A stretch of 62,884 nt of DNA, the filler included. It is 9 parts of 9 records of this genome, joined end to end, with 100 filler letters (N's around TTAATTAATTAA, not from the genome) between each part and the next. Parts side by side here need not be neighbours in the genome. Positions count along the whole stretch, not along the records: positions 1 to 6,290 come from SRR31147125_46814; 8 more parts are not named here. The stretch is one strand, 5' to 3'. A program made the translations under genes and the position numbers. The notes beneath the pieces were generated by a model. That model made no database searches. It saw only the letters and a program-made list of their open reading frames with translations, and was not told the DNA's origin. This document shows positions 2,414 through 56,060 of this stretch, one piece after another. Position 1 is the first letter of the stretch, and every line of letters starts with the position of its first letter.

Positions 2414-3796
2414 ATGAACCAAAGGAAAACTCATTTTCAACATCTTGTTTTTTTCAGTATTATTTTGTTTTTTTCGGGGAACACACTCACTTTAAATGCA
2501 CAGGATTTTCAAGAAAAACAAGATGTTTTTGAAACGTTTACCGACGATTATATTGAAGGCCAAAACCAGGTTTGCGAAAGCTGCAACGATGGGGCTTGTT
2601 CTGTTGGAGCCGGCACAAACATAACAGCCCCTGTTTGGTTAAGGTATTCTATTCTTTCGTTGCTTGCACTTTCCATTGCATTTGTACTTAAAAGAAAATT
2701 CGGATGGCAGGCAGTGGGTATTTTGTTGGTTTTATTTGTACTTGGTTTTATTCCCGACAAACATGTTTGTTTTGATGCTAAAAATCAGAATGAAAATGTA
2801 GTATTATTTGCATCATCATCTTTTGCAGAACCGGAAAAAGATGAAAAAAATAACGTATCGGAAGACACTCGGAAAGATGATTTTAAAGAATTTACTGATG
2901 ATGATTTTGAACAGTTTTCCGATGATGAATTTTCTGAATTTTCCAATGAATTTAATTCCGGTTTTATCGCTGAAACTTCAATAGAAAAAGAGTATACAAT
3001 TCTATCAGATCCCAATTTTATACTCTCCATCGAAATTCTGTTGCTTACCCTTTTAGCCGGAATTCTAATTAAATTTAAGGCAACCCGGAAACTGCGTGTT
3101 TTCTTTTTGATTGGTTCTGTTGTTTATCTGGGTTTTATTAACGGTGCCTGCCCTTGTATGATTTCCAGCTTTCAAAATGTAATTCTTTTTCTTGCCGGAG
3201 TACCTGTAAAACCAGTTCTTTTCATCTGGTTTTTGGGCTTAATACCGCTTACATATTTTTTTGGCAAAGTATGGTGCGGTTGGGTTTGTCATTTAGGAGC
3301 ACTTCAGGAATTTATTTACCGTCCGGGCATTCTCAGCATTTTAAAAAATCAAAAATCTCAAATAATTCTAAAGTATTTCAGAATAGTTGTATTGGCCATT
3401 TTAATTGTACAATTACTCATTACAAAAACCAATATTTTTATTCATTACGATCCTTTTAAAGTAGCTTTCAATCTCTTTTCAGCAAATACGCCAGGCTACA
3501 TTTTACTGGTACTTTTATTAGGCTCTTCGTTGTTAATTTATCGCCCGTTTTGCAGAGCTTTTTGCCCGATTGGACTTATTTTAGGATGGGTAACATACAT
3601 TCCGGGCAGCAGTAAATTACAAAAAAACAACTCTTGCATCGATTGTAAAAGTTGTAGTAACTCGTGTAAATACAATGCCATGGTTTACGAAAACAAAAAA
3701 AGCATATTAAATAACGACGATTGTATTCTTTGCGGAGATTGTTTCGAGAGCTGCAAATTCAATTCACTTGAAATAAAAGGAATAGCAAAAAAATGA
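2414..3796 (+). CDS. membrane 4Fe-4S binding protein (NapH/YccM/NosR C-terminal type) with acidic N-terminal extension
   Basis: GACPC, WCGWVCHLG, FCRAFCPIG and two CxxCxxCxxxC motifs; multiple TM helices; ATGA overlap with next gene. Confidence 0.85.
   Translation: MNQRKTHFQHLVFFSIILFFSGNTLTLNAQDFQEKQDVFETFTDDYIEGQNQVCESCNDGACSVGAGTNITAPVWLRYSILSLLALSIAFVLKRKFGWQAVGILLVLFVLGFIPDKHVCFDAKNQNENVVLFASSSFAEPEKDEKNNVSEDTRKDDFKEFTDDDFEQFSDDEFSEFSNEFNSGFIAETSIEKEYTILSDPNFILSIEILLLTLLAGILIKFKATRKLRVFFLIGSVVYLGFINGACPCMISSFQNVILFLAGVPVKPVLFIWFLGLIPLTYFFGKVWCGWVCHLGALQEFIYRPGILSILKNQKSQIILKYFRIVVLAILIVQLLITKTNIFIHYDPFKVAFNLFSANTPGYILLVLLLGSSLLIYRPFCRAFCPIGLILGWVTYIPGSSKLQKNNSCIDCKSCSNSCKYNAMVYENKKSILNNDDCILCGDCFESCKFNSLEIKGIAKK
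2876..2953 (+). repeat. 8-aa acidic Phe repeat in coding sequence
   Basis: DDFKEFTD-DDFEQFSD-DEFSEFSN-EF, 24-nt period. Confidence 0.8.
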
Positions 3797-5100
3797 AAAG
3801 ATACTTTATTCTGTTCATCATTATTTTTATAGTAAATTCGGTAAAAGCACAATGGGAATGCCCCAGCAAACTGGCCGCTAATTTCGATCCTGTTGGAAAC
3901 AGTTCCTTATTATTGGCCGGCGAAATTAGTGTGAGTACAGGTTTTCTCGATGGCAACTCGATTAACAGTGCTTTAGGATTTCTAGGTGCCGATTATTCAT
4001 TTCATAATCATTCATTTTACTTTGAAGGTGGATTAAAATCGTGGGCGAAATATAATGTTGAAACCGAGAATCTTTTTCATAAAGTGCGGTTTGGAGTACG
4101 CGAGCTTTTTTATCAATATCGTGGAAAAACTAACAACCTGACCGTTGGAATACAAACCTCATCGCTCGACGATCATTTTATTTTAAATGAGCGAATTGCA
4201 GGAATAAATTACAGCATTGAATCGGGGCGTTGGAAATTCACAGCTGTTTCAGGATCGGTAACCAAAGATTTTGCCCGAAATGGCATTTATTGCACAACTG
4301 GGTTTTTATATGAACTCTCAACCGGACAAAATTCTGCCTTGCTGGGAAATACATTGGGAGATAAAAATATGGGAGGTTTTTCACTTACCTATTTCCCGAA
4401 AAAAGAAAAGATGACTGCTCAAATCAGCGAATCACACGACGATGAATTTGAAGCATATGACAGCAACGAATTTGAGGCATTTGACAATAACGAATTTGAA
4501 TCGTTTGAACCGGAACCAACCTCCGGAAAAAGTAATTTTCTAACCGAACTTGAAAAAGCAGGAATTGTTGCATACAGCGAATTTGGAAAATGGATTCAAC
4601 AGCCTCTTTTTATTGCCGGGGCATTTGCCGAAATAAAACTTCCGGGTGACATTTTCTTTAAACCCGAAATTTTAGTTCAGGAAGCCACTGAAAATAAAGC
4701 GTTGATTTATATAACAGAACTAGACAAAACCATAAGTTTAAAAAATGGGCACCGGCTCACATTAAATACCGGATGGTATAATTTTACTGAAATCGATAAA
4801 GGAGCAATGCTTTTAAATTCGTACAGTAATATTCTGGCAGGCGAAGTTTTACGGCTCGATGCAGCCAACATGCCCTTTTATCTTTTTGGAATTAAATACA
4901 ATATTCCATCAACAAAATTACATTTCAAAATTCAAAATGTAAATCAGTTCAACAGTAATAATCTTAAAGAATGGGATTTGGCAATTGGCAAACAATTTAA
5001 AAAGAAACTTTTGGTTAATACAAAATTTGGGTTGATAAATGGAGGCGATCTCCCTGAAAACATATTTTTAGGAAGATTAGAAATTAGGTATTATTTCTAA
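3793..5100 (+). CDS. putative outer-membrane beta-barrel protein
   Basis: Signal peptide ending VKA-Q; alternating amphipathic strands; C-terminal RLEIRYYF barrel-type signal. Confidence 0.7.
   Translation: MKRYFILFIIIFIVNSVKAQWECPSKLAANFDPVGNSSLLLAGEISVSTGFLDGNSINSALGFLGADYSFHNHSFYFEGGLKSWAKYNVETENLFHKVRFGVRELFYQYRGKTNNLTVGIQTSSLDDHFILNERIAGINYSIESGRWKFTAVSGSVTKDFARNGIYCTTGFLYELSTGQNSALLGNTLGDKNMGGFSLTYFPKKEKMTAQISESHDDEFEAYDSNEFEAFDNNEFESFEPEPTSGKSNFLTELEKAGIVAYSEFGKWIQQPLFIAGAFAEIKLPGDIFFKPEILVQEATENKALIYITELDKTISLKNGHRLTLNTGWYNFTEIDKGAMLLNSYSNILAGEVLRLDAANMPFYLFGIKYNIPSTKLHFKIQNVNQFNSNNLKEWDLAIGKQFKKKLLVNTKFGLINGGDLPENIFLGRLEIRYYF
4441..4512 (+). repeat. 8-aa acidic Phe repeat in coding sequence
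   Basis: DEFEAYDS-NEFEAFDN-NEFESFEP, 24-nt period. Confidence 0.8.
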
Positions 5101-5111
5101 AATTTTAAAAT

Positions 5112-6131
5112 GTGAAGAAGAATCTAGCACAAACAGGAAGACGCAATTTCATTTTAACAGGTTCAAAATGGGTGACAGGAAGTATTTTGTTAAGTCAATT
5201 AACTACTTCGTGTAACGAAAGTTTTTATCAGACACTTTTAATCGATAAAACTTCATGCATTGGATGCAACGATTGCTATTCTGTTTGCAACTTTAATGCC
5301 ATTGAAATTACAGGAAAATCGGCATATAACATTGAAGAAAACAGCTGTACTTTATGTGGCTGGTGTGTCGATAATTGCGAAGAAAACGCAATAAATGTCC
5401 CGGTCGAAAACTATTTAATCAATAATTTGCTTTGTACCGACTGTTCAGAGTGTGTGCCTTACTGCAATTACAATGCAATTTCAATTGCCGGAGCTTCTAC
5501 GTACGAAATAGAATCGGGTTGTGTAGGATGTGGCGATTGTATTACTGCTTGCGAAAATGAAGGAGATGCAATCACGTATGTAGTTAGTAATTATTCGGTT
5601 AAATCAAATTGCCATGGATGTGTTGGGCGTTGTTCAGGTGTATGCAGCGACAAAGCGATTTCAAAGATTGGAGGGAAAGCCTCTATTAATACTTCTAAAT
5701 GTACAAAATGTGGAAAATGCCTGGCTGCCTGTCGACATAATGCTATTAGTAAAGCGTATGTTAAAATAGTTCAGGATAAATGTATAAAATGCGGAAGTTG
5801 TTACGAGGCCTGCACGTATAAACATATAAATAAGTCAGATACTAATTCTTCGGTTGAAGCATCAACAATCGTAAGAACTGCATGTACAAATTGTGGAGAA
5901 TGTATCGATCACTGTCAGCAAGAGGCAATTTATATTGAAAAAACAGCAAATTATTTCACTCCGGTAATCGATAATAATTTATGTTCGGCCTGTGGTAAAT
6001 GTTTTGATACCTGTTCGGTCAATTCAGCCATAACACGCAAGTTGGCTACTGTAGAAATAAATCAGGAGAATTGTATGAAATGTATGAACTGCAAAGAAAT
6101 CTGCAATTCTAATGCAATTGATTTAACTTAG
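5112..6131 (+). CDS. polyferredoxin with ten 4Fe-4S motifs and a Tat/lipoprotein signal
   Basis: GTG start; TGRRNFIL twin-arginine motif; TTS-C34 lipobox-like; nine CxxCxxCxxxC plus one CxxCxxxCxxxC. Confidence 0.85.
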   Translation: MKKNLAQTGRRNFILTGSKWVTGSILLSQLTTSCNESFYQTLLIDKTSCIGCNDCYSVCNFNAIEITGKSAYNIEENSCTLCGWCVDNCEENAINVPVENYLINNLLCTDCSECVPYCNYNAISIAGASTYEIESGCVGCGDCITACENEGDAITYVVSNYSVKSNCHGCVGRCSGVCSDKAISKIGGKASINTSKCTKCGKCLAACRHNAISKAYVKIVQDKCIKCGSCYEACTYKHINKSDTNSSVEASTIVRTACTNCGECIDHCQQEAIYIEKTANYFTPVIDNNLCSACGKCFDTCSVNSAITRKLATVEINQENCMKCMNCKEICNSNAIDLT

Positions 6132-6290: not shown

Positions 6291-6390
6291 NNNNNNNNNN
6301 NNNNNNNNNNNNNNNNNNNNNNNNNNNNNNNNNNTTAATTAATTAANNNNNNNNNNNNNNNNNNNNNNNNNNNNNNNNNNNNNNNNNNNN
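6291..6390. other. artificial contig linker
   Basis: N run with central TTAATTAATTAA (stops in all six frames). Confidence 0.98.
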
Positions 6391-6479: not shown

Positions 6480-7403
6480 TTATGTTGTCCACTCCAAATC
6501 AGTTTCTCTCGTCCAAGATTCCTTAATAATGTTACTTATATCAAAAATTGCTCGATCAATATCTTTCAAACGATATTCGATTCTGTCAGATACAAAGTGT
6601 GAGAATTCCTTATCACTAATAAAAAAGTCCAAAATAATAATTCCATCACTAAGCTCTGTATTAATTCCAATAGGTGTTGAACAATCTGCGCCTAAGATTT
6701 TTAAAATTCCAAATTCAATTTCAGAGATAGTTCGTTGGTGGCCCGAATCGATTTTGGAGATGGCTTTAATCGTTTCCAAGTCGTCATTTCTGGTTTCTAT
6801 AGCAATGACACCCTGACCTGGGGCCGGAATAAAATCTCTTTTGTTAAGAATTTCTGTTACACGATCTTCCTTTGAAAGTCTTTTAAGCCCAGCATATGCA
6901 AGAATGATGGCATCGTACTGGCCTTCGTCCATCTTCTTAATACGAGTTTCAATATTTCCCCTTATAGGTTTAACATTTAGCTCTGGACGAATATTCTTTA
7001 AGATAGCTGTTCTTCTAGGACTTCCAGTTCCAACGTGCGAATCATCAGTGAGATCGCTGAGTGTCTTACCTATTAGCACATCTGAATTGTCTTCTCTGTC
7101 TAGGAAGGCGGCTAATGTAAAATCGGAGGATACTTCGGCAGGTATATCTTTTAGTGAATGAACAGCTGCATCAATTTCATCTTTCAAAAGTGCTAGTTCA
7201 AGCTCTTTAATAAAGATTCCTTTGCCGCCAACTTCAGTAATTGGTCGATCTCTTTTTCGATCGCCTGAAGTTTCTATTTTTATGATTTCTATATCAGAAT
7301 CGCAAAAGCCGTTATCAAGAAGTTCATCAATAACAATTTGTGTCTGTGCTAGTGCTAAGCTTGATGCTCGAGTTCCGATTCTCAGTTTTTTCTGAATAGT
7401 CAT
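6480..7403 (-). CDS. hemC: hydroxymethylbilane synthase
   Basis: IGTRASSLALAQ, GKGIFIKELE, VHSLKD, IRGNIETR, PAPGQG; cofactor Cys in ADCSTPIG. Confidence 0.95.
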   Translation of the reverse strand: MTIQKKLRIGTRASSLALAQTQIVIDELLDNGFCDSDIEIIKIETSGDRKRDRPITEVGGKGIFIKELELALLKDEIDAAVHSLKDIPAEVSSDFTLAAFLDREDNSDVLIGKTLSDLTDDSHVGTGSPRRTAILKNIRPELNVKPIRGNIETRIKKMDEGQYDAIILAYAGLKRLSKEDRVTEILNKRDFIPAPGQGVIAIETRNDDLETIKAISKIDSGHQRTISEIEFGILKILGADCSTPIGINTELSDGIIILDFFISDKEFSHFVSDRIEYRLKDIDRAIFDISNIIKESWTRETDLEWTT

Positions 7404-7406
7404 TGT

Positions 7407-8411
7407 TTAATTTCCGAAGATACCAGGCTTTAAAAAGCCTAGTTTATTTTCAATAAATCGTTCGATTTTTGTCATCGAAGATTTTCTAAGTTTCATGTTT
7501 TTGTCGATAGTTTCTTTTAAATCATCAATTGAGAAGAGGGCAACGTTGGGAAGATCTGCAATATCAGGTTCAACATTTCTAGGAATTGAAATATCGATGA
7601 TTGAAAGCTTTCTGCCCAGTTTCTTGATCTGATTACTAGAAATCAGATGAGATTTAGAGTTTGTCGCTGTTACAACAACATCCGATTTTTCGAGAAGTTC
7701 TGTTAAATCTCCAAATTTCAAGGCCTCGCCACCTATTTGGCTTGAGAGATCTTTTGCTTTAGAATGTGTTCTGTTGACCAAAAAGATCTTGGAAGCACCT
7801 CGTTTTGCCAGGTGTTTTGCTGTGATAGATCCCATTTCACCACAACCAACGACAAGATAACTCGATTCCTTTGGGTCGGCAATATCGCAGGCCTGTTTTG
7901 CTGCAGCTGAACCGATTGATGTGATACCGTTGTTAATTTCTGTCTCAGTTCTTACTTGCTTTCCGAGGGCAAGAGCTGTTTGAAAGAGTTTATTTAAATA
8001 TGGACCAGACCCGCCAACCTTTTTGCTTAAAAGATAAGCATCTCTGATTTGCCCGAGGATCTGCGGTTCGCCAATAACCATAGATTCTAGTCCCGCGGCG
8101 ACGCGAAAGAGATGTTTTACTACATCTTCACAGAAGAAAATGTACATTTTCTTTCGGATATTCTCTGTTGGTAGTTCATGAATTTCACTTAAGAAATCCA
8201 TTATATAAGAACTGACTGCAGTTGGTTTGTCACAAACTACATAAATTTCAATGCGATTGCATGTAGTTAATATTACACACTCTGAAATCCCATCGATTGA
8301 TTTTATATTTTTTATGATTTTTGGTTTGATATTGTCATCAAAATGAATGCTTTCTCTCATCTTGAGAGATGATCTCTTGAAGTCTGTTCCGATTACTAGG
8401 GTGTGTTTCAT
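7407..8411 (-). CDS. hemA: glutamyl-tRNA reductase, short C-terminus
   Basis: TCNRIE catalytic Cys, HLFRVAAGLESMVIGEPQILGQ, GCGEMG, DISIPRNVE; likely start MKHTL at 8411. Confidence 0.92.
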   Translation of the reverse strand: MKHTLVIGTDFKRSSLKMRESIHFDDNIKPKIIKNIKSIDGISECVILTTCNRIEIYVVCDKPTAVSSYIMDFLSEIHELPTENIRKKMYIFFCEDVVKHLFRVAAGLESMVIGEPQILGQIRDAYLLSKKVGGSGPYLNKLFQTALALGKQVRTETEINNGITSIGSAAAKQACDIADPKESSYLVVGCGEMGSITAKHLAKRGASKIFLVNRTHSKAKDLSSQIGGEALKFGDLTELLEKSDVVVTATNSKSHLISSNQIKKLGRKLSIIDISIPRNVEPDIADLPNVALFSIDDLKETIDKNMKLRKSSMTKIERFIENKLGFLKPGIFGN

Positions 8412-8557
8412 ATCGAGAACGATTATTATTCGAAGTAGGGGAATAGTCAAGAAGGCAGTGAGAAATAGTTATACCCCTTTATGTAAAGTGATGTCTAAAG
8501 CCTTAAAAGTGTCATCCTTATGGTTTCAAGTCTTGCTATACTCGGGCTGTATACACT

Positions 8558-12519: not shown

Positions 12520-12619
12520 NNNNNNNNNNNNNNNNNNNNNNNNNNNNNNNNNNNNNNNNNNNNTTAATTAATTAANNNNNNNNNNNNNNNNNNNNNNNNN
12601 NNNNNNNNNNNNNNNNNNN
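12520..12619. other. artificial contig linker
   Basis: N run with TTAATTAATTAA. Confidence 0.98.
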
Positions 12620-23341: not shown

Positions 23342-23441
23342 NNNNNNNNNNNNNNNNNNNNNNNNNNNNNNNNNNNNNNNNNNNNTTAATTAATTAANNN
23401 NNNNNNNNNNNNNNNNNNNNNNNNNNNNNNNNNNNNNNNNN
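23342..23441. other. artificial contig linker
   Basis: N run with TTAATTAATTAA. Confidence 0.98.
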
Positions 23442-30428: not shown

Positions 30429-30528
30429 NNNNNNNNNNNNNNNNNNNNNNNNNNNNNNNNNNNNNNNNNNNNTTAATTAATTAANNNNNNNNNNNNNNNN
30501 NNNNNNNNNNNNNNNNNNNNNNNNNNNN
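30429..30528. other. artificial contig linker
   Basis: N run with TTAATTAATTAA. Confidence 0.98.
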
Positions 30529-36369: not shown

Positions 36370-36469
36370 NNNNNNNNNNNNNNNNNNNNNNNNNNNNNNN
36401 NNNNNNNNNNNNNTTAATTAATTAANNNNNNNNNNNNNNNNNNNNNNNNNNNNNNNNNNNNNNNNNNNN
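36370..36469. other. artificial contig linker
   Basis: N run with TTAATTAATTAA. Confidence 0.98.
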
Positions 36470-43827: not shown

Positions 43828-43927
43828 NNNNNNNNNNNNNNNNNNNNNNNNNNNNNNNNNNNNNNNNNNNNTTAATTAATTAANNNNNNNNNNNNNNNNN
43901 NNNNNNNNNNNNNNNNNNNNNNNNNNN
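43828..43927. other. artificial contig linker
   Basis: N run with TTAATTAATTAA. Confidence 0.98.
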
Positions 43928-50650: not shown

Positions 50651-50750
50651 NNNNNNNNNNNNNNNNNNNNNNNNNNNNNNNNNNNNNNNNNNNNTTAATT
50701 AATTAANNNNNNNNNNNNNNNNNNNNNNNNNNNNNNNNNNNNNNNNNNNN
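50651..50750. other. artificial contig linker
   Basis: N run with TTAATTAATTAA. Confidence 0.98.
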
Positions 50751-55960: not shown

Positions 55961-56060
55961 NNNNNNNNNNNNNNNNNNNNNNNNNNNNNNNNNNNNNNNN
56001 NNNNTTAATTAATTAANNNNNNNNNNNNNNNNNNNNNNNNNNNNNNNNNNNNNNNNNNNN
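55961..56060. other. artificial contig linker
   Basis: N run with TTAATTAATTAA. Confidence 0.98.

Follow-up and report, generated by a model that had tools for sequence, protein, structure and literature searches.

A candidate lipid-anchored periplasmic polyferredoxin whose relatives differ in size by matched halves around a conserved centre

What would a protein built from ten ferredoxin-type cluster motifs do on the far side of the cytoplasmic membrane, and how would so many clusters be arranged in it? The question is raised by g6, an open reading frame (ORF) at positions 5112-6131 of a 62,884-nucleotide stretch of DNA (the window), which encodes a polyferredoxin precursor of 339 residues and opens with what resembles a twin-arginine translocation (Tat) signal of the lipoprotein type. 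To our knowledge, the long-range electron paths described through the bacterial envelope are multihaem cytochromes, and the many-cluster polyferredoxins that we know of are cytoplasmic parts of methanogen enzyme complexes. We propose that g6 is a lipid-anchored periplasmic polyferredoxin of ten clusters, folded back into an electron-conducting rod that would serve the module of g4, a NapH-like membrane protein encoded in the same operon. We give this reading a probability of roughly 55%.

The gene lies on the plus strand and begins with GTG, and its homologues start at the aligned methionine. The initial annotation had described a TGRRNFIL stretch, a lipobox-like TTS ahead of Cys34, ten Cys4 motifs that lack the usual terminal Cys-Pro (CP), and an odd fifth motif; each of these details can be read in the sequence. 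TGRRNFIL spans residues 8-15, with Arg10 and Arg11 at 5139-5144, and TTSC spans residues 31-34, with Cys34 at 5211-5213. Of the 41 cysteines, Cys34 stands alone and the other 40 fall within the ten motifs, which start at residues 49, 79, 108, 137, 167, 197, 224, 258, 291, and 321, about 30 residues apart. Motif 5, CHGCVGRCSGVC, has the pattern CxxCxxxCxxxC. All 40 motif cysteines are invariant among close homologues in a seven-sequence alignment (A1). A Pfam scan matches Fer4 over seven stretches (E 3.8e-35) and five dicluster models at E 1e-25 to 1e-30.

The family to which g6 belongs is rare. A word-indexed search of 5.8 billion proteins returned only six close relatives, at 52-57% identity (53-57% for the Draconibacterium orthologues). 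When 1.84 billion cluster representatives were searched in full with a profile, 19 reached E<=1e-30 and 215 reached E<=1e-10; the lower-scoring hits were polyferredoxins of archaeal type that carry no signal. Members occur in Prolixibacteraceae, in other Bacteroidota at the level of Bacteroidales, and in Zixibacteria. Because two relatives (L003 and L004) come from cultured Draconibacterium isolates, the family is open to experiment. A search for longer homologues at E<=0.001 gave none, a weak result since relatives of 538-723 residues emerged from genome loci. The nearest solved sequences in the PDB are MvhB (9sw6_G, E 6.6e-33) and FwdF (5t5i_F, E 1.9e-22). We found no description of the family in the literature searched, which did not extend to subscription journals or supplements, and we regard g6 as a member of an undescribed polyferredoxin family that is new in its signal, its putative lipid anchor, its scarcity of CP, and its genetic context.

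That scarcity of CP separates the family from the polyferredoxins without a signal. In g6 the fourth cysteine of motifs 1-10 is followed by N, E, N, E, S, R, T, Q, S, and N, proline thus being found in 0 of 10. Complete absence is peculiar to the g6 of the window, because all six close relatives have CP at motif 8; scarcity is a trait of the family. Among the best 150 profile hits, proline follows 44 of 173 motifs (25%) in the 29 sequences that bear a signal and 617 of 739 motifs (83%) in the 121 that do not.

The case for export begins at the N terminus. The putative signal peptide (residues 1-33, 5112-5210) has an n-region containing Arg10-Arg11 and an h-region ending in TTS, and is followed by Cys34 at the lipobox +1 position. 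The initial annotation had rested its case on these features, naming homologues that lack the arginine pair and the lipobox, or that start downstream, as what would count against it. We find that relatives start at the same place and that Arg10, Arg11, Phe13, and Cys34 are invariant in A1 (7/7) and in two further alignments of relatives, A2 (17/17) and A4 (16/16; made with MAFFT, with 8- and 12-motif members included). The -1 position in aligned relatives is S, A, or G, and the -3 position is mostly L, I, or V. Among the 25 best profile hits, 22 have RRxF and, behind the h-region, a cysteine; the remaining three are fragments of 153-218 residues that cover only inner or C-terminal positions of the profile. 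TatC scores above cut-off in all five host genomes of g6 relatives. The arginine pair, the hydrophobic h-region, and the invariant +1 cysteine of the lipobox are together what is expected of a Tat lipoprotein. From these features we infer export and lipidation, and from the Cys4 motifs a full set of Fe-S clusters.

The opposite view is that g6 is a cytoplasmic polyferredoxin serving redox enzymes as MvhB and FwdF do, its first 33 residues being no signal or its true start lying downstream. The nearest solved sequences are indeed cytoplasmic archaeal proteins, and no curated Tat model matched g6. Against this stand the conservation of RRxF, the hydrophobic stretch, and the cysteine at the same place throughout A2 and A4, the distinctness of the signal-less polyferredoxins, which form a separate, lower-scoring group rich in CP, and the neighbours of g6, which are envelope proteins. 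We consider a cytoplasmic location very improbable.

Which face of the envelope a lipidated g6 would occupy can be judged from the residues behind Cys34. In the window these are N-E-S-F-Y, and relatives have C-S-D/E-S-F-Y and similar sequences, with one acidic residue. The surface-export signal tested in Bacteroidota consists, in the available part of PMC5080379, of K or a polar residue after the +1 cysteine and then at least two D/E (C-X-K-(D/E)2, SDDDD, SDDFE). By that definition, as given there, g6 has no such signal, and for this reason we place it on the periplasmic side.

The arrangement of the clusters is illuminated by how members of the family differ in size. All share a centre, which in A4 runs from motif 4 (CVGCGDC...G.AI.Y) through the irregularly spaced motif 5 to motifs 6 and 7; within it CVGCGDC with Gly139 and Gly141 and the cysteines of motifs 4-7 are invariant. 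In the window this centre comprises residues 137-147, 167-178, 197-207, and 224-234 (5520-5813). It is preceded by motifs 1-3 (residues 49-59, 79-89, and 108-118; 5256-5465) and followed by motifs 8-10 (residues 258-268, 291-301, and 321-331; 5883-6104). We divided each mature protein after motif 5, the landmark of the centre, and called the halves balanced when their cysteine counts agreed within two. Halves were balanced in 34 of 37 sequences by cysteine count and in 8 of 9 further sequences by eye. Overall, 42 of the 46 signal-bearing sequences have equal halves around the conserved centre, although the meaningful count is the eight size classes and not 42, because many of the sequences are close relatives and not independent. 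Those classes are 3+3 motifs (P0033), 4+4 (e.g. P0017-P0025), 5+5 (g6 of the window, its close relatives, and L082), 6+6 (P0011, P0013, L084, and L089), 7+7 (L108), 8+8 (L007, L110, L111, and L113), 10+10 (L006 and L112), and 11+11 (L008 and L009).

The positions at which units come and go are equally regular. Each of the seven 8-motif members in A4 lacks exactly motifs 3 and 8 of the window, and P0011 has its extra units between motifs 1 and 2 and between motifs 9 and 10. Units added to the N-terminal half are of the form CxxCxxCx3C, often followed by proline (type A, of which motif 3 is the expandable unit in g6), and those added to the C-terminal half are of the form CxxCxxCx5C, followed by ...YGAI...P..Y..P.I (type B, with motif 8 as the expandable unit). 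Automatic assignment of repeat units was noisy and missed variant motifs, and these results rest on the MAFFT alignment, cysteine counts, and sequences that were read individually.

This growth in step bears on the choice between two ways of pairing the motifs. Were neighbours to pair in order (1+2, 3+4), only an even total would be needed, and the conserved motif 4 would change its partner between odd and even classes. Were pairing nested, with motif i joined to motif N+1-i, each conserved motif would keep its partner and growth would call for an A and a B unit together, as is seen. The lock-step growth of the halves therefore supports nested pairing. The initial annotation had suggested such pairing (5+6, 4+7, and so on), and the suggestion gains comparative support, at the level of sequence, from equal halves in eight size classes and from the paired loss of motifs 3 and 8. 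In four-cluster subunits of the DmsB/FdnH type, Cys groups I and IV pair, as do groups II and III. In MvhB, according to the accessible portion of PMC13580544, ferredoxin domains are inserted within others. Both arrangements are precedents for nested pairing.

These observations lead us to the following model. Ten [4Fe-4S] clusters would be loaded into g6 in the cytoplasm, and the protein would be exported folded through the Tat system, cleaved at Cys34, and anchored by lipid in the periplasm. The chain would fold back, motif i meeting motif 11-i (1+10, 2+9, 3+8, 4+7, and 5+6), to give five two-cluster ferredoxin-like domains stacked as a rod. Motifs 1-3 would form the outbound arm and motifs 8-10 the return arm; the lipid anchor and both termini would lie at the base, and the conserved motifs 4-7 at the far tip, with motifs 5 and 6 opposite the termini. 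Neighbouring clusters are usually 10-12 Angstrom apart. We estimate that the rod would measure about 100 Angstrom with ten clusters and about 250 Angstrom with 22, the range across members of 6-22 clusters being about 60-250 Angstrom. As an electron wire for the adjacent conserved module, the rod would most likely have g4 as its partner, in the way that NapG has NapH, and would pass electrons on in the direction of the outer membrane, the site of the porin g5 and perhaps of the final acceptor.

The partners just named are neighbours of g6, which is the last of six tightly packed genes, all on the plus strand. Gene g4 (2414-3796) encodes a NapH/NosR-like membrane Fe-S protein of 460 residues that matches Fer4_5 over two stretches (E 2.5e-14) and has a C-terminal dicluster domain. 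Against the NapH/MauN model TIGR02163 it scores 65.7 bits, below the cut-off of 213, which makes it a member of the superfamily and not an equivalog. Its stop overlaps by 4 nucleotides the start of g5 (3793-5100), which encodes an outer-membrane beta-barrel of 435 residues and ends 11 nucleotides upstream of g6. An AlphaFold2 model of g5 from 82 sequences is an 18-strand beta-barrel (predicted local distance difference test score, pLDDT, 85; predicted template-modelling score, pTM, 0.81), and Foldseek places AlgE (3rbh, E 7.6e-11) first among its matches, followed by OprD/Occ porins. No Pfam family matches g5, and its 93 homologues are all named hypothetical. A prediction of the g5-g6 complex scored 0.01 against a mark of 0.34, which is uninformative either way. 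The mature N terminus of g5 (QWECPS, residues 21-26, 3853-3870) and Cys167 (4291-4293) are invariant or nearly so in 82 homologues; a disulfide between the cysteine of QWECPS and Cys167 may therefore fasten the N-terminal segment to a long loop.

Both g4 and g5 contain acidic, phenylalanine-punctuated repeats. In g5 an insert of D/N-E-F repeats (residues 208-245, 4414-4527), modelled with pLDDT below 50 between strands 8 and 9 and present in homologues as well, would by strand parity be a periplasmic turn. In the N-terminal part of g4, DDF/DEF/NEF repeats (residues 155-181, 2876-2956) are read as periplasmic because in the homologue L092 such repeats directly follow a signal peptide. Repeats of the D/N-D/E-F type recur in variable number in g4 and g5 homologues from other genomes. 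That they capture a cation is a guess.

The remaining genes of the operon lie upstream. Gene g2 (1012-2007) encodes an ArsP_1-type permease (PF03773, E 1.5e-23), and g1 (622-1011) and g3 (2015-2389) encode small secreted proteins of 129 and 124 residues, distant paralogues that cross-match the same loci in tblastn. For g3, no Pfam family was matched and an ESM Atlas search gave only unnamed Bacteroidota clusters; the gene is conserved upstream of g4 in most related loci and belongs with g4 and g5 to a core. Both small proteins have a conserved cysteine near the mature N terminus, g3 also has THRHCHEG, and the two flank a permease with a VCSCS motif (622-2389), an arrangement that looks like a set of soft-metal chaperones and a permease.

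These neighbours are also compatible with a different role for the operon, in the handling of a metal or metalloid, iron included: g5 and the acidic repeats would capture a cation, g4 (with g6 where present) would reduce it, g1 and g3 would act as chaperones, the ArsP-like g2 would move the metal, and g6 would be an electron feeder for a reductase and not a long-range wire. Membership of g2 in ArsP_1, with weak matches to the SO_0444 Cu/Zn-efflux and SaoE models, speaks for this proposal, as do the conserved Cys and His of g1 and g3, the D/E-F repeats in both g4 and g5, and the renewed association of g1-g2 with g4-g5, in a different gene order, in the distant genome L085. A cupric reductase, CcoG, is among the relatives of NapH. 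On the other side, no metal-binding family matched g1 or g3 in Pfam or NCBIfam, or g3 in the ESM Atlas, the matches of g2 to named efflux models are far below their cut-offs, and nothing in the data identifies a metal. We regard this proposal as unlikely.

Annotation of ORFs and Pfam domains finds no reductase gene between positions 1 and 8450. Past the operon in the window, two minus-strand ORFs at 6480-8450 point towards it; by their sequence they are probably hemC (porphobilinogen deaminase) and hemA (glutamyl-tRNA reductase). Paired runs of 44 N's, 12 bases apart, read as masked stretches, recur at eight places every 5-11 kb through the window (6291-6390, 12520-12619, 23342-23441, 30429-30528, 36370-36469, 43828-43927, 50651-50750, and 55961-56060).

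How faithfully does g6 keep this company? Five Draconibacterium genomes keep the array g0-g6 and the upstream hydrolase in synteny, with identities of 53-57% for g6 and 73-80% for the hydrolase, and the g3-g4-g5-g6 core is also found in one Zixibacteria and one Bacteroidales metagenome-assembled genome. The g5 profile matches 2 of 401 genomes sampled from the phylum and 25 of 301 sampled from the order, and in 12 of those 25 a g6-type gene directly follows g5. Thus g3-g4-g5 is the core, to which the polyferredoxin is a frequent add-on.

Three variants of the locus stand apart. In L085, g5 is followed on the minus strand (1205-1495) by a two-cluster ferredoxin of 96 residues with a lipoprotein-type signal (…IIVNSC) that has KR in place of RR, with homologues of g1 and g2 next to it; an apparently Sec-type signal is odd for an Fe-S protein. 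The 22-motif (11+11) members, of 722-723 residues, are followed by a barrel of the Omp85 superfamily and not by a g5-type porin (L008:4368-7921 and L009:1280-4840). This barrel (Pfam E 4.3e-10) has no POTRA domains and in L008 overlaps the 22-motif gene by 4 nucleotides; the L008 genome has its g5 homologue on a different contig. At L114 / L106 / L109 (G459:C7), g5 is in two pieces and the polyferredoxin is reduced to a C-terminal piece of 182 residues, which looks like a decayed copy of the locus.

The adjacency of g5 and g6, separated by 11 nucleotides and recurring across phyla, raises the possibility of a conduit through the outer membrane. Here the rod would be gripped by the g5 barrel or pass through it, or would be flipped to the surface, as an Fe-S counterpart of MtrA/MtrB that exchanges electrons with minerals, Fe(0), or partner cells. 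Ten redox centres would be the number found in the decahaem MtrA, family members range from 6 to 22 clusters in length, and the Omp85-superfamily barrel that follows the 22-motif members in L008 and L009 could be a translocator. However, 18-strand barrels of the AlgE/OprD type are narrow substrate channels in which a folded ferredoxin domain would hardly fit, so a threaded, MtrAB-like conduit is unlikely, and the residues behind Cys34 miss the tested surface-export signal of Bacteroidota. We also know of no route that would take a folded Fe-S lipoprotein across this outer membrane. We judge the conduit as a whole to be improbable.

Several observations also weigh against a periplasmic rod that serves g4. 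The signal has weak points: the lipobox of the window, T-T-S-C, is poor at -3 (T), residues 1-46 matched no Pfam family and no curated Tat-signal model at E<=10, and the relative L111, an 8+8 member of 538 residues encoded on the minus strand, has D-R-G-D-F where others have RRxF, so that RG replaces the arginine pair; this is either a sequence error or a sign that the twin arginine can vary. Four of the 46 signal-bearing sequences are unbalanced, a point to be set beside the limited independence of the set: P0027 is 4+3, P0029 is 4+2 with a Cys-poor tail, and P0032 and P0034, whose C-terminal parts are not ferredoxin-like, are for that reason probably broken. AlphaFold2, given a 17-sequence alignment, returned a pLDDT of 45.4 and a pTM of 0.22 for g6 and so offers no usable model of a hairpin; cluster pairing and rod length cannot be read from it. 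The link to g4 is also less than tight. No g6 lies within 1.5 kb of g5 in 13 of the 25 order-level genomes. In six genomes that have the g3-g4-g5 core, a search that recovered g6 from four controls gave no g6-type match at E<=1e-15. The core therefore functions in the absence of g6, and a partnership of g6 with g4 is not proven. From its hydrophobic segments and its positive-inside charges, g4 would have its Fe-S motifs in the cytoplasm while the rod would be periplasmic, and the operon contains no gene for a terminal enzyme. Electrostatic docking of g6 on the acidic repeats in g4 and g5 was entertained and dropped as unlikely, since mature g6 is itself acidic (isoelectric point about 5).

A Tat-exported, lipid-anchored polyferredoxin would, if our preferred reading holds, amount to a second material for periplasmic wiring, its length set by matched half-domains, in lineages that are poorly studied for respiration. 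The lock-step rule is in any case a natural experiment on the pairing of ferredoxin half-domains, and the family offers what may be natural rods of 6-22 clusters for biophysics and bioelectronics. A bolder and unlikely extension is that such rods are cytochrome-free wires of tunable length (6-22 clusters) that span the distance from the NapH-like protein in the inner membrane to the porin in the outer membrane, or that reach the surface with the aid of the porin or an Omp85-like barrel. If true, sediment Bacteroidota and Zixibacteria would have a way to trade electrons with minerals and metals outside the cell, or with partner cells, that requires no multihaem cytochromes.

Among known systems, MtrA/MtrB/MtrC invites comparison through its ten redox centres in a rod, its lipoprotein component, and its outer-membrane barrel encoded alongside, and is a functional analogy for the passage of electrons through the envelope. 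The centres of MtrAB, however, are haems and not Fe-S clusters (the g6 sequence contains no CxxCH), and its barrel has 26 strands to the 18 of g5. Subunits of the DmsB/FdnH/NarH/NrfC type, many of them Tat-exported, have nested Cys groups and a linear chain of clusters, as we propose for g6, but have only four clusters and are always subunits of a catalytic enzyme. Fer4_11, the Pfam model of this type, is not among the 12 families that match g6, nor is there a DmsB-type subunit among its 60 best PDB hits.

MvhB, VhuB, and FwdF of methanogens share with g6 the tandem Cys4 motifs of clostridial type and provide its best PDB sequence matches; MvhB, in the portion of PMC13580544 available, likewise has one motif of irregular spacing along with its inserted domains. 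In contrast to g6, these proteins are cytoplasmic and free of signals, nearly always have CP, and form branched or T-shaped parts of Hdr/Fwd complexes. On the NCBIfam models g6 falls far short (VhuB, 64.5 bits against a cut-off of 600; FwdF, 64.1 against 375), and its neighbours are envelope proteins, not the hydrogenase, Hdr, or Fwd genes of the MvhB/FwdF context.

The closest parallel is with NapG/NapH, and also with NosG/NosH and MauM/MauN, in which, as apparently in g6 and g4, a Tat-targeted ferredoxin with several [4Fe-4S] clusters is encoded with a membrane protein of the NapH type. NapG has four clusters and no lipid anchor, whereas g6 would have ten (6-22 in the family) and has a lipobox. 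Here, too, unlike in the NapG/NapH systems, a porin gene lies between g4 and g6 and the operon encodes no enzyme of the NapA or NosZ type. The initial annotation had set g6 against polyferredoxins held to be cytoplasmic, a contrast that is too broad. As the available part of PMC5449189 reports, the ferredoxin NapG leaves the cytoplasm by the Tat route and has as its partner the polytopic Fe-S membrane protein NapH, and Tat dependence was shown experimentally for a natural NapH-NapG fusion polyferredoxin of the delta-proteobacterium MLMS-1. By analogy with this pair, we read g6 as a lipid-anchored, extended counterpart of NapG that may connect g4, by electron transfer, with a component close to the outer membrane.

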